Source of the DNA: Parcubacteria group bacterium | Lineage (GTDB): Bacteria; Patescibacteriota; Minisyncoccia; Moranbacterales; UBA2206 | Length of the DNA: 64,000 nucleotides | Direction: 5' to 3' | Assembly (NCBI GenBank): GCA_041661275.1 | Contig: JBAZUU010000001.1 | Span: 165,057-229,056, forward strand | Shown: positions 34,233-47,511 of the stretch, piece after piece | Layout: each line of letters opens with the position of its first letter | Numbering within the stretch: the first letter of the stretch is position 1 | Notes under the pieces: generated by a model | Database searches by the model: none | Seen by the model: only the letters and a program-made list of their open reading frames with translations | Told to the model about the DNA's origin: nothing | Program-made: the position numbers and the translations under genes

Positions 34233-35237
34233 TTAACACTTGCTATAGACATCATAGTTGGACATGATTCCATCGCAGTAACTTCCGCCGCACGCGCTGT
34301 CATTGCATGATCCGCAATATGCTTTCGCGGCTTTTCTTATGCCTTCTTCGCTATAATCCCCGCCGCTATCCTTGGCAATCTTTTTTGCGCCGCAGTTCAG
34401 AGCATCTTGTCGATTAAATTTGCTTCCGCTACATCCGTATGTACTCCATGTAGTGTCGTCAAACTGCATAGCGCCTCCATTCTTTCCATTGATCGAGTTA
34501 TTACTTGAAACACACCCACCGAATGAATTGGTAAAAGCGGAGGTACATTCTCTTTGAATAAAGGAATTTAGAACTGATTCGGGCACTCCATATTTTTCAG
34601 ACGCAGACTTAACTTCACTGGCATAAGTAGAATCGCTTAAATTGCTGCAGCTGGCTTTTGTACTTACTCTACCGCCACTACTTGTGCTGGCTGCTGTTTT
34701 GGCAGTCATGCAGGTAGAATAACAGTCGTCGTATTTTATACTGGAATCGCTGCCGCCAGCCTCGCAATATTTTTTGCAATCTTCTGCATTTTGAGCGGCG
34801 GTTGCGGCAGATGTTCCGCTGCTACTGGTGCCGCTGCTACTGCCACTAGGGAATTTTATTTTTATATTCACTAAATCCGGATTGATGGTATTGAGCAGAA
34901 GCCAGGCGGTCATAGCCATGGCGAGGCCGATGAGAGCGTCAGTGATATATCCTTTGGCTTTTCCCATCGTGGCGTTGTTGCCGGCCGAAGTCATATACAT
35001 AAATCCGCCGATCATAATCATAAGAAGAGCGCAGATGCCGATAGCCCAGATGCCGAATTTGTAAACAGCTTTGACGTATGCAGGAAATTCAACGGCGCCG
35101 GAAGCCATACCGGGGATTTTTTCCATCGGAGTATATGTAGTGTTGGCTGTGCTAGCCGCGTGGGAAAAATGGGAAATGCCCAATCCAAAACCTACGATGG
35201 ATATTAATACAATAAGAAATATAATTTTTTTATTCAT
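34233..35237 (-). CDS. T4SS-pilin-like protein fused to a C-terminal lytic transglycosylase (SLT) domain
   Basis: YVKAVYKFGIWAIGICALLMIMIGGFMYMTSAGNNATMGKAKGYITDALIGLAMAMTAWLLLNTI pilin hairpin. A CKKYC Cys-rich linker follows. The C-terminus carries ESVLNSFIQRECT...GGAMQFDDTTWSTYGC, the SLT E-S/Q-AMQ pattern. Confidence 0.55.
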   Translation of the reverse strand: MNKKIIFLIVLISIVGFGLGISHFSHAASTANTTYTPMEKIPGMASGAVEFPAYVKAVYKFGIWAIGICALLMIMIGGFMYMTSAGNNATMGKAKGYITDALIGLAMAMTAWLLLNTINPDLVNIKIKFPSGSSSGTSSSGTSAATAAQNAEDCKKYCEAGGSDSSIKYDDCYSTCMTAKTAASTSSGGRVSTKASCSNLSDSTYASEVKSASEKYGVPESVLNSFIQRECTSAFTNSFGGCVSSNNSINGKNGGAMQFDDTTWSTYGCSGSKFNRQDALNCGAKKIAKDSGGDYSEEGIRKAAKAYCGSCNDSACGGSYCDGIMSNYDVYSKC

Positions 35238-38521: not shown

Positions 38522-38600
38522 AGCGTATTTTGTATACTAGCTCTTAGACGTCCAACCTCTAAAGAATTAAGGCCTGTTAGAGGTTGGACGTCTAAATATT

Positions 38601-39056
38601 CTAAGCTGTTTTTTGCGCCCGGCTTCTTTCTGATTGGGTCAGTATGTATATTGTCATTACCATCATCGTTTCTATCGGAAGAATATTTACTCCAAAAATC
38701 ATTTCCGCGGTTGTGCCGATCAGTAATATTATCCAGCAAATCATTCTCGTTTTTCCTCCGAGCATCATCATCATAGCGATAAAAATCGAAATACAAATGG
38801 TAATTACTATTATGATAATATAAGTTATTATGGCGAACTCAATTAAGTCTATTAAGTCTTTGAAAATGGCGGCCATTAGAGCCAGAAGATACATCCAATC
38901 AGAAGTAAGGCTGAATCTTTTGGCCATCTTCATCATTCCCCAAGGGGTTTTTGATTGAATTATATTTTTTATATCCTTGGCGGTATTGGGAGTGCTTCGT
39001 TTTCGATCTCTGTTTCTCGCGGCTTGCAGATTTTGTTGTTTCTCGTAATCAAGCAT
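38601..39056 (-). CDS. hypothetical membrane protein in the T4SS-like operon
   Basis: 3-4 TM helices. Start taken as the ATG at 39054-39056, because the ORF-track GTG start lies inside the intercistronic repeat. Confidence 0.4.
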   Translation of the reverse strand: MLDYEKQQNLQAARNRDRKRSTPNTAKDIKNIIQSKTPWGMMKMAKRFSLTSDWMYLLALMAAIFKDLIDLIEFAIITYIIIIVITICISIFIAMMMMLGGKTRMICWIILLIGTTAEMIFGVNILPIETMMVMTIYILTQSERSRAQKTA

Positions 39057-39060
39057 AATT

Positions 39061-39179
39061 GTCTGAACCACTGATTTTCACATGAATTCACATGATTTCA
39101 CTGATTTTTATTATTAAAATTGTTGTTATTTTTTATTCATGTGTAATCAGGATAATCAGTGCGAATCAGTGGTTCAGAC
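39061..39179. repeat. intercistronic palindromic element (family 3, copy a) overlapping the virB4 TGA stop
   Basis: Arms gtctgaaccactgatt (39061-39076) and aatcagtggttcagac (39164-39179). The interior carries CACNTGATT / AATCANGTG motifs around an AT-rich centre. Confidence 0.7.
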
Positions 39180-40982
39180 TTCTTCCGCTAATTCTTTTTT
39201 GGCTGCTTCAATTTCCAGAAGTTGCGCCGGATCAGTGGTGATTATCTGATCTTCGGAATATGAAGCGATGACTTTGATAGCGACATGTTTGGTGCCGGCA
39301 AAAAATATTCCCTCTCCAACGTTACTTTCGAGAAGCAAAAATTTTTCCTGATCAGTAAGATAGAATGTTTCCGTGATGACATCAATGCCGGCCGGTGATT
39401 GTTTCAAGAGAAGCTGGAGTGATGAGTTGGTGACGATCGCTTTTCCGTAGCGTGATGATAAAAAGTCGTTGACATCCTGGGTGATGGTGGTGAGGCCGGT
39501 GTAATATTTGCGGCAGCGCTTGGCGATGCCGAAAAGAAAAGATGCCGCGTCTTCATATTTCATCATTACCCAGGCTTCATCGACCAAAACCAATCTTTTA
39601 GTAAAATTAGTGCGCATTTCGTTCCAGACGAACTGCAAAACGATATACATAGCCACCGGTCGCATCTCCTCTTCCATATCGCGCAGGTTAAAAACCATCA
39701 GCTGATTATCCACCTTGATGTTGGTGGTGTTATTGAGAAATCCGGCAAAAATTCCTTCGGTGTATTTTTCCAGGCGTATGGCCAAATTTTCTCCGCCATC
39801 CATCGACCGCAAAACTTCCCAAAGATCGGTCATAGTGGGAAATTGATCAGGGGTAAGCAAATTGAAATTGGCTTGCGGCGTGATGTCACGGACGGAATAT
39901 GTTTCACGGATAGCCCGGTCAAGGATAGAATCCTCTTCCGGGGTGATGGATCCAAGCATAATGTGGAGAAGTCCGAGAAGATGAGCGATGTTGTTTCGCA
40001 AAATATCTTCCGGATCATCATCTTCTTTCAGGCGCGGCAGATCAAACGGGTTAATGTGATTTTGGGAACTCAAAGAAATCTTGATGAATGTCCCGCCGAC
40101 CGAATCACACAAGTGCTTATATTCATTTTCCGGGTCAATAATGATGACGTTCACCCCCAGCATCAGAGAGCGCAGAGTTTCCAGTTTGATAGTATAACTT
40201 TTTCCGGCGCCGGATTTGGCAAAAACCACCATATTGGCATTTTCCAGTTGAAACCGGTCGAAGATGATGAGACTGTTGTTGTGGCGGTTGATGCCATAAA
40301 GAATCCCGCGGTTGTCAGAAAGAGTTGAGGAAACGAAAGGAAAGGTAGTGGAAAGCGGAGCGCTGTTCATCGATGTGCCGATATCCAGTTCGTCATTGGC
40401 GATAGGGAGAGAGGAAACAAATCCTTGCTCTGTCTTGAAAACAGCCGGTTTTACATATACCAATTGAGCTTCCAAAATTGCCTCGATGGATTTGGCCAGT
40501 TCCGTCACTTCTTTTTCTGTTTCCCCGTAAGCAGTGATATAGAGGCCGAAGCGGAAAAATTTTTCCGTCCCTTGTTGCAATTTATCCCGCAGCTCGTCAA
40601 TATCTTTGACGGCTGTATCCAGCGCCGGATCGCGAATCATTCCTTTTTCCTGCTCGATATGCACTTCCGATTCCACTTGCGTGGCTGTTTTTTTGAGAGT
40701 TTTCAGGATGTCATAAGTATCGATGGGATGGATAAACATGGAAATATCGATGGGCATATCGATATTGATTATCGGGGAGAACCAGGCGCTTTGCAAGTAT
40801 CTCGGATAAGCGATAACGCCGATGGTGGAAACGAAAAGCTCTCCCACGCGGATATAGCGAGGCATCACTTTTATGGCCGAAGGAGCGATGAGATCAGAAA
40901 GTCTGGCCACGCCTTCCTGGTAGTATTTCTCACTGGCGATTATCTCGTCTTCTATCTCGTTTTTTTTGGAAAATAATGACAT
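39174..40982 (-). CDS. VirB4/TrbE-family T4SS ATPase, C-terminal ATPase portion
   Basis: Walker A FAKSGAGKSY, DEAW Walker B and the TQ...NDF region. The preceding region matches the VirB4 middle domain. Confidence 0.9.
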   Translation of the reverse strand: MSLFSKKNEIEDEIIASEKYYQEGVARLSDLIAPSAIKVMPRYIRVGELFVSTIGVIAYPRYLQSAWFSPIINIDMPIDISMFIHPIDTYDILKTLKKTATQVESEVHIEQEKGMIRDPALDTAVKDIDELRDKLQQGTEKFFRFGLYITAYGETEKEVTELAKSIEAILEAQLVYVKPAVFKTEQGFVSSLPIANDELDIGTSMNSAPLSTTFPFVSSTLSDNRGILYGINRHNNSLIIFDRFQLENANMVVFAKSGAGKSYTIKLETLRSLMLGVNVIIIDPENEYKHLCDSVGGTFIKISLSSQNHINPFDLPRLKEDDDPEDILRNNIAHLLGLLHIMLGSITPEEDSILDRAIRETYSVRDITPQANFNLLTPDQFPTMTDLWEVLRSMDGGENLAIRLEKYTEGIFAGFLNNTTNIKVDNQLMVFNLRDMEEEMRPVAMYIVLQFVWNEMRTNFTKRLVLVDEAWVMMKYEDAASFLFGIAKRCRKYYTGLTTITQDVNDFLSSRYGKAIVTNSSLQLLLKQSPAGIDVITETFYLTDQEKFLLLESNVGEGIFFAGTKHVAIKVIASYSEDQIITTDPAQLLEIEAAKKELAEEV

Positions 40983-41013
40983 AATTTTTTTGAATAGTAT
41001 TCCTTAAGTAACC

Positions 41014-41151
41014 CCGTCATTCTGAGCGGAATGACCCCGCCTTGGCGGGGGAATGAAGTCGAAGAATCTGCTAAATATTAGCACCAGTGATAATATATAG
41101 TAGATCCTTCGACTACGTCCAATAAGAATTGGACTTCGCTCAGGATGACGG
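41014..41151. repeat. MITE-like palindromic element, family 1 copy C, between the two virB4 parts
   Basis: ccgtcattctgagcg ... cgctcaggatgacgg. Inner gaagtcgaagaatct ... agatccttcgact. Carries an internal ccccgcc-tt-ggcgggg hairpin. Confidence 0.75.
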
Positions 41152-41159
41152 TTGTTTTT

Positions 41160-41846
41160 TTAGCGTATTTCCATCAAACTCGAATCCTTCAATTCTATCG
41201 AATTATATATTTCCGGATTATATGAATTAAACATCAACTCAATGAGTTCCTGCGTTTTCAAGGGAGCGATGCGCAGGCCGATTCCGGCCAGGGCGGCGAT
41301 AATGTGATCCACTCTTTGGAACAGCTGACTTTTGTATGTCTCAAAATTTTCCCGCTTTTCCAGAATGTTCTTTTTCGGATTGAACATATTGAAGAGATTG
41401 GAGAAAAAACCCTTACTTTCATTCTCAATGGGAGAAAACGGAACGATGATATAGAAATTCTTGTCCATAATGTTGGTGGAAGCGATGAGTTGCCCGATGA
41501 AGTTTTTATATTCCGAGATCTGCATCCGCAAAAGTTCATTGGGCTGTTTCTTCTCGTTTTCCGTGAGGAAATTGAGATAATTTTCCATATTGAGTTTTCG
41601 GGAACTAACCAGGATTTGCAATGGAAAATCGACGGAATTGAGAAAATTCTGATATTGATTAATGATCGCTTCCTGCTCGTCGGTGGATTTCAGTTCGAAA
41701 TTGATGGAAGATACGGCCAGGACACTGCGCAACGCGCCGCTTTTGAGCATAATGACATCTTCTTTCACTTCCGCCACGTCTAAAAATTGCTGGGTAGCGG
41801 CATTGGTTGGTTTTTTGGATATTTTGTTGGAATGTAGGATTTCCAT
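41160..41846 (-). CDS. VirB4 N-terminal domain protein (split VirB4)
   Basis: FLDVAEVKEDVIMLKSGALRSVLAVSSINFELKSTDEQEAIINQYQNFLNSV matches the CagE/TrbE/VirB N-terminal domain pattern. 229 + 602 aa approximates a full-length VirB4. Confidence 0.55.
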   Translation of the reverse strand: MEILHSNKISKKPTNAATQQFLDVAEVKEDVIMLKSGALRSVLAVSSINFELKSTDEQEAIINQYQNFLNSVDFPLQILVSSRKLNMENYLNFLTENEKKQPNELLRMQISEYKNFIGQLIASTNIMDKNFYIIVPFSPIENESKGFFSNLFNMFNPKKNILEKRENFETYKSQLFQRVDHIIAALAGIGLRIAPLKTQELIELMFNSYNPEIYNSIELKDSSLMEIR

Positions 41847-41852
41847 AAAAAG

Positions 41853-41948
41853 TCTCGAACCACTGATTAGCACATGATTATCCTGATTACACTTGATTTT
41901 TAAAATTCAGTGAAATCAAGTGTAATCAGTGATAATCAGTGGTTCTGA
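41853..41948. repeat. intercistronic palindromic element (family 3, copy b)
   Basis: Arms tctcgaaccactgatt and aatcagtggttctga. The upstream gene's TGA stop (41936-41938) lies within the arm. Confidence 0.7.
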
Positions 41949-42331
41949 TTTAGTATTTTACTCAACTCTTCTATCTTATCTCCGCTTATCTTCTTCCTCT
42001 CATGTATTATAGCATTTTTGTCTTTTCCTTTTTTCGGAATCACTATTTTTTCCGGCAAGCGATGCCAGACATACATTCGCGGGCGGAAGATATAGAAGAC
42101 GGAAGACGAAAGAAAAGCAATGAGCGGTTGGCCATACGGGCGGTAAAATGCCATGGCGCTGAAAACCGCGGCGATTATGATGGCGGCGATGATGAAGCCT
42201 TGAGTATCGAGAAAATTCCAAAAAACCAGCGCCACAACGCCACCCAATCCCAACCAGCCCAGCTGTTTGGCGGTGAGTGGTCCTACTATTTTATCTTCAA
42301 TGTCTAAAAATTGTGGAACGTTAAAAAGCAT
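41936..42331 (-). CDS. VirB3/PrgI-like small membrane protein
   Basis: 132 aa with two TM helices (LGWLGLGGVVALVFWNF; FIIAAIIIAAVFSAMAF), positioned directly upstream of virB4 as virB3 usually is. Confidence 0.45.
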   Translation of the reverse strand: MLFNVPQFLDIEDKIVGPLTAKQLGWLGLGGVVALVFWNFLDTQGFIIAAIIIAAVFSAMAFYRPYGQPLIAFLSSSVFYIFRPRMYVWHRLPEKIVIPKKGKDKNAIIHERKKISGDKIEELSKILNQNH

Positions 42332-42335
42332 AGCT

Positions 42336-42496
42336 GTCCGAACCACTGATTATCACTGATTTTCCTGATGACACGTGATTAGTGTCAGTGGCATTATTTG
42401 ATTAATATTTTTTATATATTACTTTACTTCTAAACTTTTTGCTCCGAAACAAATCAGTGAAATCATTTTAATCACGTGAGAATCAGTGGTTCAGAC
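42336..42496. repeat. intercistronic palindromic element (family 3, copy c)
   Basis: Arms gtccgaaccactgatt (42336-42351) and aatcagtggttcagac (42481-42496). Interior has cacgtgatt, cactgatt and aatcagtg motifs. The upstream TGA stop at 42491-42493 is in the arm. Confidence 0.7.
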
Positions 42497-43792
42497 ATCC
42501 TTGAGATTTACCACATTCCTCGGCAACTCTTCTTTTCCATCATCATATGGCGTGGCCGGAGCGATGTGCAACGGCTGCGGCTCGATCGGCGCTTGTGGTC
42601 TTTCGGGGACAAACGGTTTCGGCGGCGCTGGTTGCATTTGCGGTCTGACAGGAGCCGGCGGAGTCACGGGAGCTGGTGGAGAAAATTTTTGTTCTTTTTC
42701 TTTCTCAAACGGCAACTTTTGCGGGGAGGAAAAAACTAACTGACTGGTTTTGGATTGCTCAACTGGTTTGAACTCCGGAGAACCGAATCTCACTTCTCTT
42801 ATATTTTGGGAAGCATCTTGCCTGTGTTCAATATCTGATTCTTCCGGCTTTTGGGGAATATGATAGTGTTCGTAATTTTTTTCCAGATTATTTTGCGGCG
42901 CTTGTTTCTCAGGAGAAAACTGTGGCCGTATCGGCGCTCCAGCGGATTGGATATTATCGAAATTATAAACAGGCCTGCTTACCTGCCTGCCGGCAGGCAT
43001 GGCTTCTTGCTTCATACTTTCTTGTTTAGCCATTGCCGGAAAAACTATCTGTTTTTTTGTTGTGTCGATTGTTACCGGCGTTTTCTCATCGTATGATTTC
43101 AGGATATATGACAACTTATTCCTGTCTTCCGCGGACAATCTTTTGGCGTTTTCGTTCTGAAACATATAGTTCCCGCGAGTGATGGTGTCATGGGATTCAT
43201 AACCGACGCTATACGTATAATCCGAAACCCAGTTTTTGATTGTCGGACGAACCGGTTCTTGCCCTCCTCGTATTTTTATCGATTCGGACGTGACAAATTG
43301 ATCGGCAACAGTCGGGTATTTCGCCAGGGCGTCGGGCAGGGAAATTTTCGTCAGTTGCGCCTGGTAGGCTTTTTCCAGGCTGTCATCGTTGATAATTTTT
43401 TGGATAACTATTTGAGAAATTTCCTTGGCGGTGTTGAGATCTACGCCCATTTCTTTGTACAGGATTGACGGAAAATCTTCCAAATGAATCTCGCCGAAAT
43501 AATAACTGCGGATAGCGCGAGAAATGTCGGCTAGTTGCAGGAGTTGTAAATTGTATGTTTTTCCGATTTCTTGGATTTTATTGCTAGTTTCTTGAGAAAC
43601 AAGCTTATCTTTGATATTTTCAGGCAATGTTAAAAATTTTTCTTGTCTTTTTTCTACATCCCCATCGCGTTCATCTACTAGATTTTTTGTTACTGAAACT
43701 GCTTGGGGTACAGTAAATTGGCGAAGTTTTATTTTTTCTAAAACATCTGGCTTCACATATTTCAATACTTGAGGAGAATAATCTTGTAGCAT
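42491..43792 (-). CDS. hypothetical protein with a Pro-rich C-terminus (433 aa)
   Basis: No TM segment or signal peptide. The C-terminal PPAPVTPPAPVRPQ region is low-complexity. Confidence 0.4.
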   Translation of the reverse strand: MLQDYSPQVLKYVKPDVLEKIKLRQFTVPQAVSVTKNLVDERDGDVEKRQEKFLTLPENIKDKLVSQETSNKIQEIGKTYNLQLLQLADISRAIRSYYFGEIHLEDFPSILYKEMGVDLNTAKEISQIVIQKIINDDSLEKAYQAQLTKISLPDALAKYPTVADQFVTSESIKIRGGQEPVRPTIKNWVSDYTYSVGYESHDTITRGNYMFQNENAKRLSAEDRNKLSYILKSYDEKTPVTIDTTKKQIVFPAMAKQESMKQEAMPAGRQVSRPVYNFDNIQSAGAPIRPQFSPEKQAPQNNLEKNYEHYHIPQKPEESDIEHRQDASQNIREVRFGSPEFKPVEQSKTSQLVFSSPQKLPFEKEKEQKFSPPAPVTPPAPVRPQMQPAPPKPFVPERPQAPIEPQPLHIAPATPYDDGKEELPRNVVNLKDV

Positions 43793-43834: not shown

Positions 43835-45847
43835 CTAAATAGGAACCCCAAGATTTCTTAATGCCTTAACATTAGCAGAGCTTAACCGCTTACTTAGTTC
43901 ACCTTGAGCTTGCGGTTTTAGGCTAATATACGAATCCAATAATGCAGCTGATAGCTTTGCCCTGTTTGGCCCTGTTAGTTTTTTATCAACAACTGCCCAG
44001 TTTTGATCTCCCCATTTTTCAGCTGTCATTTTACCCATTTCATCTTCGATTACTTGATATTTAATCATGTCGGGTGTCCATAATGGATTTGCTGTTTTAA
44101 TATCTTGATATTCTTTAGAATTAATATCCTCTGCTTTACTGATAGCAACAACATCAGTTCTGTTTTGTTTGACCTTGGCATCAAGTGCGCTCTTGATACG
44201 TGTTGACCCCTTTGTATTTCTAAGAAATTCGTTATAAACATCACTATCCATTTCTTTCAAATCGGCTAAGGCATAGGCGGCTGCGGCATCACCCTTTTTC
44301 GCAAGATCCTGAAGCTCAGGTAATGACTTCTCTTTTTTATATTCATCCGCTTGTTTTTTCATATCTCTTTCTTCAGCGCTTTTGGAGCCTAATGCAGTAG
44401 CCATTCTTGCTTCTCTGCTCTCTCTACTAGATTTAAACTTATTTTTAATTTCGCCATACCGCTGTTGTACTCCTCCAGGAATTCCAGTTGCCTTAAATCC
44501 CATCCAGGGTGCTTTATATGTTCCCCTGCCGACCCACTTCATAAATTTTTCTCCTCTTCCCACAATCGCCCCAGCGCCAGCGATACTCATTTTTTGTGCC
44601 GAGCCGATGCCGACCCATAAAATGACGATCGGGATAGAGAAAAAAGCGAAGGCGGCAATAGTCTTAGCAATCTCCGGTTGCGTTTGCGCTGTGGCTATTA
44701 TGCTCATCTGTCCTTTCTTCTTAGCAATTTCCCCCATCATCTTCGTAGCAACAACCATCATGAAAATCATAACCGGGCCAAAGAATGCGTATTTGAAAAG
44801 GGTGTCCCACCACTCACTGGCGTATTTAGAAAGGAAAGGAACGATTGATCCGACAAAAGCAATAGAAGCAAAAATTATAAGAATTGCCAAAACTACTATT
44901 CTAATAAGAAGCAAAATGGCGATAATAATCAGGGTTACCATAAACATGAAGGTAAAAACAATAGCAGCTATAAGAAAGCTCATATCCGAATTTACACTCA
45001 CAGACCCACCAACCTTAGGGTTAACAATATCGGCTAATCCCCCATTATTTGCAAAATCTATAAAAATTTTTCCGTCTTTAATATTGGATCCCAAGCCATT
45101 TATCAGGTAATACATTATAACATTGGAAAAGTCTATAATAACTCGGGCAATGGGAAAACTAAAATTGACCAAAAGAGCCATTATGATAAGAGTCACTAGC
45201 AGACTTTTGTAGCTATATTTTGAAATTTGAAAAACGGTGCAGAAGGCGGAGAAAAGAAGAACGAGAATGAAGGCTACGTTTAACATATCTCGGACAAAGC
45301 CCCATAATTCATATATAACAGAGTTATCCAAAACTGCTTTCATATTGGCCGTATCAATAACCCATACAAAAAGAGTGCTAGCGGCTACTATAAGAGCACC
45401 AATAAATTTCAGAACGTAAAGCAATAAGCATTTTATCCCCTTAAGCGAAAGGACAGCATCGAGCAAACCTATTCCACAAACATCTTCAGTTTTTTGACCC
45501 ACTCCTATTGTGCCTTCAGAATTTTTATCAAGTGTTGCTTGTGTTCCTGATTTCAATTCGTCTGCCTTTGCTTTATCCTCCGTGTATCCTACGAAAATTG
45601 AATCACCGCCTCCGCTAGCGCTAGAAGTTGTGAGTGTTTTTTTACACGCACTCTCGCTGTCTGACGTAAAATAATCTACTTCTGCAGAAAGCCCTCCCGT
45701 GTTATTTGTCTGATGGACGCAATATCCTGCTCTTGCTTTTTCCACTTTCCCCAATCCAAAACCAGCCACAATAAATACTGCGAGAAACATATAAAATACG
45801 ATTTTATTTTTCGTGTTTGTTTTCATTGTCTGGATTACCGAAAACAA
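43835..45847 (-). CDS. VirB6/TrbL-like polytopic membrane protein with a C-terminal hydrophilic domain
   Basis: Signal peptide, a 130-aa exodomain, at least 7 TM helices, and a 270-aa charged C-terminal domain. Confidence 0.55.
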   Translation of the reverse strand: MFSVIQTMKTNTKNKIVFYMFLAVFIVAGFGLGKVEKARAGYCVHQTNNTGGLSAEVDYFTSDSESACKKTLTTSSASGGGDSIFVGYTEDKAKADELKSGTQATLDKNSEGTIGVGQKTEDVCGIGLLDAVLSLKGIKCLLLYVLKFIGALIVAASTLFVWVIDTANMKAVLDNSVIYELWGFVRDMLNVAFILVLLFSAFCTVFQISKYSYKSLLVTLIIMALLVNFSFPIARVIIDFSNVIMYYLINGLGSNIKDGKIFIDFANNGGLADIVNPKVGGSVSVNSDMSFLIAAIVFTFMFMVTLIIIAILLLIRIVVLAILIIFASIAFVGSIVPFLSKYASEWWDTLFKYAFFGPVMIFMMVVATKMMGEIAKKKGQMSIIATAQTQPEIAKTIAAFAFFSIPIVILWVGIGSAQKMSIAGAGAIVGRGEKFMKWVGRGTYKAPWMGFKATGIPGGVQQRYGEIKNKFKSSRESREARMATALGSKSAEERDMKKQADEYKKEKSLPELQDLAKKGDAAAAYALADLKEMDSDVYNEFLRNTKGSTRIKSALDAKVKQNRTDVVAISKAEDINSKEYQDIKTANPLWTPDMIKYQVIEDEMGKMTAEKWGDQNWAVVDKKLTGPNRAKLSAALLDSYISLKPQAQGELSKRLSSANVKALRNLGVPI

Positions 45848-45941
45848 TTTTTAATTTGAAATTTTTAATTTTTAATCAATTTGTAATTTGGAAATTTTTA
45901 AATTTAAAATTCAATAAAAATTTCGAATTAAAAACTAAAAA
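45848..45941. repeat. AT-rich AATTTTTAATT-type repeat tract
   Basis: tttttaatttgaaatttttaatttttaat... Same motif family as 2790-2927. Confidence 0.45.
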
Positions 45942-46313
45942 TTATTTATTCTTATCTTTATTTTCCATTGTATTGATAATTTTGGAAAAAATCATTGCCA
46001 ATTCCTGCGATTCTCTCCATAATTCTCTACATTTCACTTTATGTTCCGGAGCTGCTTTGGCTAAAACTTGCAGCCAATACATACTTTCCTTAGTCTCTTT
46101 CTTGCATATATGAATTTTATTTTTAAAATCTTTTCTTGAACTGGCTCCATTTGCCTCACAGTAGTTGGCGCCGATACTAGTAATGGATCTTATTAATTGA
46201 CCGATAATAGGAATGGTAATTATATCTTTTTTAATATTCCTCAAAAACTCTATTGTATTTTCGCTAAGCTTTGTTGTTCTTTCTTCTAGATTATACTTTT
46301 CAGATTTACTCAT
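45942..46313 (-). CDS. four-helix-bundle protein of the 23S rRNA IVS / Avd-like family
   Basis: 123 aa. IGQLIRSITSIGANYCEANGASSRKDFKNKIHICKKETKESMYWLQVL resembles PF05635/TIGR02436. Confidence 0.65.
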   Translation of the reverse strand: MSKSEKYNLEERTTKLSENTIEFLRNIKKDIITIPIIGQLIRSITSIGANYCEANGASSRKDFKNKIHICKKETKESMYWLQVLAKAAPEHKVKCRELWRESQELAMIFSKIINTMENKDKNK

Positions 46314-46359
46314 TTAAAATTCTGTCATTTAAAATTTATTAAAAATTTCAAATTAAAAA
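46314..46359. repeat. AT-rich AATTAAAAATT-type repeat tract
   Basis: aaatttattaaaaatttcaaattaaaaattaaaaatt. Confidence 0.45.
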
Positions 46360-47511
46360 TTAAAAATTCCTTTGGGGTGGCGGGAAGCTGGAGCCGGAGC
46401 TGCGGGTGGTGGAGGTCGAGCCGGAATAGTCGGAAGAGCTAGTGCCGGAAGAACCGGAAGTTGACGAGCCGCCGACATATTTGTAATAGAGAGGATCTGA
46501 GCTTAGGCTGTCGACTGATGATGATGAGGACGAGCTGGAAAGCACGGAACTGGATGATGTGCTGGAGCTGTAATAGGAAGACGGACTTAGGCTTCCGGCC
46601 AGCCCGGTAAGCGTGCTGGAGGAAACGCCCAGTTTGCTCGCGGCCATACTGATGCCTTGCTTCAGAGCCTGTGTCATCAGCTTGGAAACCAGAGCGGTGA
46701 TCACTTCTTCCGGGTGGGTGGCGGCGGCGATAACTTTGTTGCCGGCATCCATCGTATTGGCCTTAGTTAAGGGAATCACAGAACCCGGAAGAGTTATTTT
46801 GCCCTTGCCGTTTGATCCTTCACCCACGCCGATGCCGCCAAGATAGGCTTTAGATTTAGTTTCAGCCAGTTTTCTTTCTTCCGCTTTCTTTTTTTGATAT
46901 TCACTTTGGGCATTCACATCAAATGACCAGGGGTTGTTGATGCCGGAAAGATAGCTGTTGAAATTTTTGAAATTTCCGCTGGAAAACATTGATGACGGAT
47001 TGCCCGAATAGGAAAAAGTCGGATCCTTTTTACTGATGGTGTTAGCCTTGGCCATCGCGACCAATTGGCTGGCATATCCTGAGCTGCCACTGCTGCTGAA
47101 ACCTTCGCTAAGGCTGGAATAGCTGCTGGTTCCTTTGCCGGACGTAATTTTGCTCAAATAATCGTTCATATAGAGTTTAGTGTTGTTGTCTGGAGTTTTA
47201 AAGAGGTAAGTTTCCCAATCAGTGATAAATTTGGCGCTGCCACTCTTCCCGCTGCCGGCGATTGCCGCATCCACTTGTTTGTTGAGGGTTGAAATGGCTT
47301 GCTGTTTCAACATTCCCAAGACTATTCCCTTGATCCGGTCGCGGATGTCTTCCAGCATTTGCTTGTAGGTGAATCCGGGAATGTCCGGCCAGAGGGCATG
47401 AGCTTTAGGGGTGGTTAGGGGAGAAGAAAAGATAAAAAGACAAACAAAAATAACAAGAATAAATCTTTTATAGTTTGGAAGCAAAATATTTTTTTTGTTT
47501 TTCTCTCCCAC
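46360..47511 (-). CDS. secreted Ser-rich hypothetical protein
   Basis: TM/signal N-terminus and long poly-Ser tracts at the C-terminus. Confidence 0.4.
   Translation of the reverse strand: MGEKNKKNILLPNYKRFILVIFVCLFIFSSPLTTPKAHALWPDIPGFTYKQMLEDIRDRIKGIVLGMLKQQAISTLNKQVDAAIAGSGKSGSAKFITDWETYLFKTPDNNTKLYMNDYLSKITSGKGTSSYSSLSEGFSSSGSSGYASQLVAMAKANTISKKDPTFSYSGNPSSMFSSGNFKNFNSYLSGINNPWSFDVNAQSEYQKKKAEERKLAETKSKAYLGGIGVGEGSNGKGKITLPGSVIPLTKANTMDAGNKVIAAATHPEEVITALVSKLMTQALKQGISMAASKLGVSSSTLTGLAGSLSPSSYYSSSTSSSSVLSSSSSSSSVDSLSSDPLYYKYVGGSSTSGSSGTSSSDYSGSTSTTRSSGSSFPPPQRNF

Follow-up and report, generated by a model that had tools for sequence, protein, structure and literature searches.

What are the long imperfect palindromes that fill three gene junctions of an operon resembling a type IV secretion system (T4SS) in a Parcubacteria group bacterium? 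The stretch analysed here, which we call the window, comprises 64,000 nucleotides (nt) of contig JBAZUU010000001.1 (positions 165,057 to 229,056, forward strand). A first-pass annotation had taken the palindromes to be specific to this locus and had suggested RNA processing sites, attenuators, coupling structures or binding arrays for a regulator. We find that the same sequence family is dispersed over many loci in related bacteria of the candidate phyla radiation (CPR), where its long form encloses a small nuclease-like gene. The elements look like selfish insertions more than operon-specific regulators, and we put the probability at about 0.75 that they are non-autonomous copies of a nuclease-bearing palindromic insertion cassette dispersed in CPR bacteria. 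They are best read as derivatives of such a cassette that resemble miniature inverted-repeat transposable elements (MITEs) or the intervening sequences (IVS) of ribosomal RNA.

The three palindromes are real, and their sequence and coordinates hold, save that the second begins at 41852 and not at 41853. The genes lie on the minus strand, and the earlier description of the junctions fits a minus-strand reading. Element 1 (39061-39179, 119 nt) lies between the gene of the 602-aa VirB4-type ATPase (39174-40982, minus) and that of a 151-aa product, element 2 (41852-41948, 97 nt) between a PrgI/VirB3-like gene (41936-42331, minus) and a gene for a 228-aa TraC-like protein (41160-41846, minus, PF26593 match), and element 3 (42336-42496, 161 nt) between the gene of a 433-aa product and the PrgI-like gene. 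Read on the coding strand, every element opens with (G)TCWGAACCACTGATT and closes with ...AATCAGTGGTTC(N)GAC. The stop codon of the upstream gene had been placed in this opening at each junction. This is correct for VirB4 and for the 433-aa gene, which both end in the GTCTGA of GTCTGAACC (39174-39176 and 42491-42493), but the PrgI/VirB3-like gene uses a second TGA, within CACTGATT (41936-41938). The next ATG follows 4, 5 and 4 nt past the GAC end of elements 1, 2 and 3 (39054-39056, 41844-41846 and 42329-42331), where 4-10 nt had been given. The junctions are also three of four rather than strictly consecutive, since a fourth, at 40983-41159, lies between elements 2 and 1 and is occupied by a palindrome from a different family. 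Lying only a few nucleotides from stop and start codons, the elements must be co-transcribed with the host operon. Their arms close all three reading frames by TGA within about 43 nt, and the sole trace of coding capacity in the 119, 97 and 161 nt is an 11-codon gene remnant in element 3.

All three elements have terminal inverted repeats, in the form of two inverted arms of 45-48 nt (39061-39108 plus and 39134-39179 minus in element 1, 41852-41899 plus and 41903-41948 minus in element 2, 42336-42383 plus and 42448-42496 minus in element 3). An arm consists of four TGATT-type units (CAC(N)TGATT) behind TCWGAACCACTGATT, spaced 9-11 nt. In the arms-only doublet of element 1, the plus-strand arm beside the start of the 151-aa gene (nhmmer E 3.5e-13) reads GTCTGAACCACTGATT TT CACATGAATT CACATGATTT CACTGATT, with units 9-11 nt apart, and is a variant with three CAC units. 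The minus-strand arm (nhmmer E 3.1e-13), in which the VirB4 open reading frame (ORF) ends with its TGA at 39174-39176, reads GTCTGAACCACTGATT CG CACTGATTAT CCTGATTA CACATGAAT and is a variant with a CCTGATT middle unit. Element 2 is an arms-only doublet as well. The GAACCACTGATT core occurs six times in the window, always in these six arms, where 0.32 matches are expected by chance and none of 100 shuffles reached six. A profile built from 97 arms of other genomes recovers exactly the same six (E 1e-11 to 1e-14) and no others when the threshold is relaxed to E<=10, which upholds the claim that the family occurs nowhere else in the window. The profile search likewise found no arm in a further 18 kb of the source contig.

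That all three copies lie within 3.4 kb could mean that they arose by duplication or slippage inside the operon and resemble other repeats only incidentally. Such a local origin is hardly credible when a profile that holds arms of other genomes only matches all six this well. Moreover, the window copies are no nearer to one another than to copies of other genomes, and element 2 is 88% identical to a doublet of the relative L137.

The description as locus-specific does not survive, because copies are scattered outside the operon in related genomes. We searched an 18-nt arm pattern in contigs of one genome per species (the stretches of this analysis are labelled L001-L224) and found it at more than 116 loci, mostly in assemblies of Moranbacteria, Parcubacteria and Paceibacteria, and on several contigs per CPR genome. 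The profile search gave 191 arms in 116 sequences, with 54 doublets. When the tandem-array pairings of Desulfonema L048 are set aside, doublets fall into size classes of 78-110 nt (arms only, about 95), 115-255 nt, some of which hold other repeats nested inside, and 485-570 nt (about 490, gene-bearing). The same arms are found after recG, infB, pilB, an hlyD-like gene, ftsA, eno and atpG, so that their neighbours encode RecG, IF-2, a PilB-type (T2SSE, type II/IV secretion) ATPase, an HlyD-like protein, FtsA, enolase and ATP synthase gamma. Of the 105 CPR-type arms, 62 adjoin the end or the beginning of an ORF of 80 aa or more (40 a stop codon, 19 a start codon, 3 both); the stop is either a TGA within the arm or a TAA or TAG immediately beyond it. 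Lone arms occur as well, either with a stop codon on one side and a terminator hairpin on the other, or where convergent genes meet. Arm identity between genomes is about 77% where the VirB4 proteins share no more than 70-80%, and the most similar of all pairs of copies lies within one genome (L054, 94%). Related genomes carry copies on several contigs; the source genome has three, clustered, within about 82 kb.

The gene-bearing class is the one that connects these repeats to a candidate source. Its members, of about 490 nt, consist of an arm, an ORF of 128 aa and an inverted arm. The product belongs to PF13366 (PDDEXK_3, E 2e-38) and TIGR04256 ('GxxExxY protein'). Its AlphaFold model (pLDDT 89.6) shows the alpha-alpha-beta-beta-beta-alpha-beta-beta arrangement of a PD-(D/E)XK fold, and a fold search with the model gave weak PD-(D/E)XK matches (Cas4, lambda-exonuclease-like, MGME1 and tRNA-splicing endonuclease) at E of about 1e-3. 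Among the putative catalytic residues D74 and K86 are invariant, while E84 is present in at least 90% of the sequences. GxxExxY homologues number at least 8000 at E<=1e-10, and the arm-linked subfamily at least 120 clusters of 72-100% identity, all from Moranbacteria, Parcubacteria or Paceibacteria. Every complete gene of this subfamily that we examined has the flanking arms. Genes picked by protein similarity alone had both arms, adjoining ATG and stop, in five of five distinct loci with DNA, and L196, retrieved through its VirB4, supplied a sixth gene with both. The gene points the same way as the host gene upstream of it in 13 of 13 cases. Element 3 retains the last 11 codons of such a gene: the minus strand at 42419-42454 translates as ICFGAKSLEVK*, as seen by tblastn to residues 86-128 and by comparison with the 3' end of the L033 gene, and full-length genes end in ...INFGAKSLEVKRYIK*.

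How do the orthologous operons compare? One alternative holds that the palindromes are intercistronic RNA elements, selected by the host, that set the stoichiometry of T4SS subunits as processing sites (for RNase III or another enzyme), as attenuators or as coupling hairpins. In its favour, three copies sit in one operon with none elsewhere in about 82 kb, and several relatives carry palindromes at the same junctions. We compared 80 metagenomic loci that share the gene order of the operon and have VirB4 proteins 69-95% identical to the one in the window. Arms of this family are present in only about 9 of the 80, and most of the 80, the closest relatives among them, have empty junctions or palindromes of other families. 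L117, with a VirB4 87% identical, has TAA-TT-ATG at the element 3 junction, which is empty, and L144, with one 95% identical, has an unrelated CACGTAA-type palindrome after VirB4, at the element 1 junction. Doublets are found at the element 3 and element 1 junctions in L137 and at the element 2 junction in L136, and a full GxxExxY cassette occupies the element 3 junction in L196. In 46 relatives the distance from the 433-aa gene to prgI has a bimodal distribution, with values of 1-36 nt (and one 11-nt overlap) or of 75-559 nt, and the long gaps are filled by at least eight families of inverted arrays with units of 7-10 nt. Occupied and empty versions of the same junction thus both exist.

The folding of the elements bears on the same alternative. 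Their hairpins reach -40 to -55 kcal/mol, with z of -6.2 to -9.6 against shuffled sequence on both strands, and are thus far more stable than chance. On the coding strand z is about -7 and the stop and start codons lie at the two stem bases, as an RNA element might have it, and co-transcribed miniature elements are known to alter mRNA processing, Correia via RNase III and ERIC via RNase E (PMC2229807). However, the pairing itself does not appear to be what is kept. RNAalifold on 22 doublets gave 26 pairs, all essentially invariant, with 0 of 26 compensated, single changes left uncompensated and a covariation term of +0.39. At variable positions, similarity is 0.34 between the partner arms of a doublet, lower than the 0.45 between arms taken from different doublets, and 0 of 2000 permutations gave so low a value. 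In most doublets an arm with three CAC units is combined with one that has the CCTGATT middle unit. Both orientations relative to host transcription occur, even within this operon (element 1 versus element 2) and in the two L137 copies. We conclude from the lack of compensatory changes and from the two orientations that the unit sequence is conserved and not the pairing. An Rfam scan of 38800-42700 (E<=1) found no family at gathering score, its miRNA and snoRNA hairpin matches having 21-29 bits against 40-83. Together with the absence of the element from most orthologous operons, the same arms after unrelated housekeeping genes and the dead nuclease gene fragment in element 3, these results make host-selected RNA elements of the T4SS an unlikely explanation. 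The hairpin will still form in the transcript, and RNA-level effects on the operon, such as coupling across the stem or RNase III cleavage, are plausible by analogy, and attenuation is a possible one too.

Conservation of units without compensatory changes is what the suggested array for a binding protein would show, and it is compatible with a protein, or a folded form whose internal loops are fixed, as the recognising partner. A period of 9-11 bp, one helical turn, points the same way. It could therefore be asked whether the arms are operator arrays of a host transcription factor or nucleoid protein around a promoter in the AT-rich centre, making regulated internal promoters. Weak sigma-70-like matches do lie on the coding strand inside elements 2 and 3. 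Our promoter and terminator scan was uninformative, though, with 13 promoter-like matches where 7.4 +/- 3.3 are expected, not clearly above shuffles. Single arms in front of terminator hairpins or between convergent genes are awkward for operators, the arms consistently bracket a nuclease gene, and different arm families swap at the same junction, which is unexpected for a conserved regulon. We regard operator arrays as decidedly unlikely. The part of the original suggestion that stands is the iterated array at helical-repeat spacing; its most likely binder is the element's own GxxExxY nuclease and not a regulator of the operon.

How, then, might the insertions have come about? In the cassette reading, which we favour, a full cassette has at each end TCWGAACCACTGATT and, behind it, another three units of CAC(N)TGATT type at one to a helical turn. 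The GxxExxY nuclease may recognise the iterated units and drive spread by homing-like or transposition-like cutting. Loss of the gene would leave doublets of about 95 nt, and the window would then hold two copies reduced to arms and one with a gene remnant. In the T4SS mRNA the arms could pair into the hairpins of -40 to -55 kcal/mol, bringing stop and start codons together. The hairpins might keep translational coupling, so that the insertion is tolerated, or RNase III might cleave them in the manner of 23S rRNA intervening sequences. If T4SS expression is affected, this would be a by-product and not the reason for which the elements exist. We infer mobility from the dispersal over genomes and loci, the filled and empty sites, the gene decay in element 3, the cognate pairs of full and miniature forms, and the 94%-identical pair within one genome.

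Several observations weigh against this reading. No transposition or homing event was observed, and when filled sites were compared with empty ones neither a consistent target-site duplication nor a defined insertion site emerged; the TCWGA motifs at either end form a direct repeat in roughly half of the doublets and an inverted repeat in the others. We have no explanation for the base W of TCWGAACC, which follows the direction of the host gene. The stop-codon side mostly has TCA, or TCT where its TGA is the stop, and on the start-codon side about 20 of 25 doublets have GGTTCAGA(C) in the coding-strand reading. The order of the two arm variants is mixed (about 11 to 7 by eye). The GxxExxY protein has no meaningful sequence match in PDB and no close solved structure. 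No biochemical activity of the family is known from the literature, and a survey of PD-(D/E)XK proteins gives its function as unknown (PMC3424549). The source genome has only three copies in about 82 kb, all within 3.4 kb of one operon. An intact GxxExxY gene was not found in these 82 kb, the 18 kb beyond the window included. Such clustering hints at local constraint or selection, and the arm identity of about 77% could be explained equally well by selection at the level of the host as by recent spread or nuclease recognition. A link of the three-CAC and CCTGATT variants to the two sides (5' and 3') of the nuclease gene was also tried; it was rejected as inconsistent in full-length copies.

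The long junction inserts of the relatives show that more than one small gene is involved. GxxExxY genes are found in L196, L118 and L139, 23S_rRNA_IVP genes in L159 and L162, where the cassettes sit at the element 3 junction, and a GIY-YIG gene in L128. L118 and L139 each have a divergent GxxExxY gene with its own arms, of ACGAAT and AAATACGAAAT units respectively, and a gene-less doublet with matching units elsewhere in the same operon. A further subfamily, with CACAGAA units, is inserted between atpD and atpC in L002. Arm type therefore tracks the GxxExxY subfamily, as the genes in L118, L139 and L002 have unit types of their own. This leads to a broader and more tentative hypothesis, to which we give less than even odds: GxxExxY proteins (PF13366 / TIGR04256) may serve as the nucleases that mobilise a so far undescribed super-family of palindromic cassettes, each subfamily reading its own 7-10-nt unit (CACTGATT, ACGAAT, AAATACGAAAT or CACAGAA). 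With GIY-YIG and 23S_rRNA_IVP cassettes they would populate CPR operon junctions, tolerated as RNA stems that are removed or bypassed through IVS-like RNase III cleavage or stop-start coupling, and their gene-less hairpins would shape operon processing and stoichiometry, for instance in this T4SS. We searched the literature on GxxExxY, PDDEXK_3, PF13366 and on palindromic repeats or MITEs of CPR bacteria, and came upon no account of these elements.

The remainder of the operon has palindromes of other kinds. Its genes on the minus strand include conserved partners with 151-, 228- (TraC-like), 433- and 670-aa products, and a T4SS pilin-like gene lies at 34233-35237 (minus). The palindrome at 40983-41159, between the TraC-like gene and VirB4, has a folding energy of -72 kcal/mol (z -8.3). 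Both the outer stem (GTCATCCTGAGCG...CGCTCAGAATGAC) and the inner one (AGTCGAAGGATCT / AGATTCTTCGACT) match the flanks of the GIY-YIG nuclease gene in L128, and it is probably a gene-less derivative of a GIY-YIG cassette. VirB4 function is apparently split between the 228-aa TraC-like protein (41160-41846) and the 602-aa ATPase (39174-40982). The palindrome between them is not the cause of this split, because the two-gene layout is conserved in 80 of 80 relatives. Between the 151-aa and 219-aa genes there is a perfect 19-bp hairpin at 38535-38590 (TTAGACGTCCAACCTCTAA / TTAGAGGTTGGACGTCTAA), and with it at least six junctions of the operon hold palindromes, of at least four families. Finally, a gene for a 23S_rRNA_IVP / four-helix-bundle protein (45942-46313, minus) lies between the 383-aa and 670-aa genes of the operon, bracketed at 45838-46376 by AT-rich inverted arrays of AATTTTTAA-type units with 64-nt arms that are 75% complementary. 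This is a full cassette of a second class.

Some sites and repeats outside the operon deserve mention in their own right. The site just after the stop codon of the PilB-type ATPase gene is occupied in four genomes (L010, L023, L033 and L064), by a full GxxExxY cassette in L033 and by a single arm in the other three, in L010 and L064 with a terminator hairpin; it is empty in the source genome (L224 2855-2860). A junction between genes for a membrane fusion protein and a MacB-type ABC transporter is occupied repeatedly (L030, L200 and L202). In places a palindrome of one family is nested in the centre or arm of one of another family (L071 3457-3843, L054 4739-4993, L139 6777-6870 and L128 3021-3537), examples being a GTCATTGCGAGCG-type element in a CACTGATT doublet and a GIY-YIG cassette in AT-rich arrays, and element centres themselves appear to be landing sites. 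In Verrucomicrobia a multi-copy repeat, GTTGAACCACTGATTAACACTGATGAACACTGATC, is often found at contig ends (Opitutales L013, L022, L035, L061, L062 and L075; Luteolibacter L040, L050, L059, L063, L066 and L090). Desulfonema magnum has a 192-nt tandem array of the same CACTGAT(T) units (L048 3335-3900). The unit therefore occurs outside CPR bacteria; at the loci inspected, no GxxExxY gene was adjacent to the Verrucomicrobia and Desulfonema matches. The 19 matches in viral contigs were rejected, as all are one conserved coding sequence of a viral group.

The practical consequence is that these spacers should be annotated as selfish insertions and not as T4SS regulators, and that they should be masked or flagged in analyses of CPR operons. 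The GxxExxY family gains a concrete and testable role, as genes bounded by cognate inverted arrays that yield gene-less derivatives. Operon junctions of small CPR genomes prove to be places where small-gene palindromic cassettes of at least three kinds land repeatedly, and the hairpins left behind may affect mRNA processing and translational coupling in organisms not yet grown alone.

Which known systems do the elements resemble? Bacterial MITEs such as Correia/NEMIS, ERIC/IRU and RUP are non-coding, about 100-200 bp long, bounded by terminal inverted repeats and dispersed between genes; they are co-transcribed, form long stem-loops, carry stops in all frames and in some cases affect mRNA processing (PMC2229807). 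The small size, lack of coding capacity, terminal inverted repeats, intergenic dispersal, co-transcription, stem-loops, all-frame stops and filled and empty sites are shared. Unlike simple inverted repeats, the arms here are four iterated units of about 10 nt, we found no TA or other target-site duplication, and there is no sequence similarity to Correia/NEMIS, ERIC/IRU or RUP. The gene-bearing partner shares the arms but encodes a PD-(D/E)XK GxxExxY protein, with a putative role in mobility, and not a known transposase.

REP-associated tyrosine transposases (RAYT) are encoded by single genes of about 130-150 aa with inverted short repeats on either side, and are HUH/Y1 transposases (PF01797). 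The repetitive extragenic palindromic (REP) elements and the hairpin-forming REP doublets (REPIN) that go with them were reportedly described by Nunvar in 2010 and by Bertels and Rainey in 2011. Here too a small gene lies between inverted repeats, and the repeat also occurs as hairpin doublets and as singlets by gene ends. The gene, however, belongs to PF13366 / TIGR04256 and not to the Y1 transposases of PF01797. REPs are 20-40-nt GC-rich palindromes with GTAG or CGTC heads (PMC3733652), whereas our arms are AT-rich direct-repeat arrays of CAC(N)TGATT units.

The intervening sequences of 23S rRNA are selfish, stem-bounded elements with an S23p / 23S_rRNA_IVP ORF, sporadic or horizontal distribution and ORF decay; they sit in rRNA helices and are excised by RNase III (PMC4990558). 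Both have an inverted-repeat stem that encloses an optional small ORF and lies in a host transcript, and cassettes with an IVP gene occur at the same T4SS junction (L159, L162) and once in the window, at 45942-46313. The elements here differ in lying between protein-coding genes and in the family of their gene. The free-standing homing endonuclease genes of T4-like phages (seg and mob) offer a last comparison. They too are small nuclease genes that lie between conserved genes, point the same way as these, and are found at a given site in some relatives but not in others. To our knowledge, seg and mob genes have no flanking inverted arrays and no gene-less palindromic derivatives, both of which are found here. 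The elements do not fall within MITEs, REPIN/RAYT systems or IVS as these are defined, because the gene encodes neither a DDE nor a Y1 transposase, a target duplication was looked for and not found, and the site lies outside rRNA. By analogy, they are nevertheless best read as working in the way that bacterial MITEs or REPIN/RAYT systems do.

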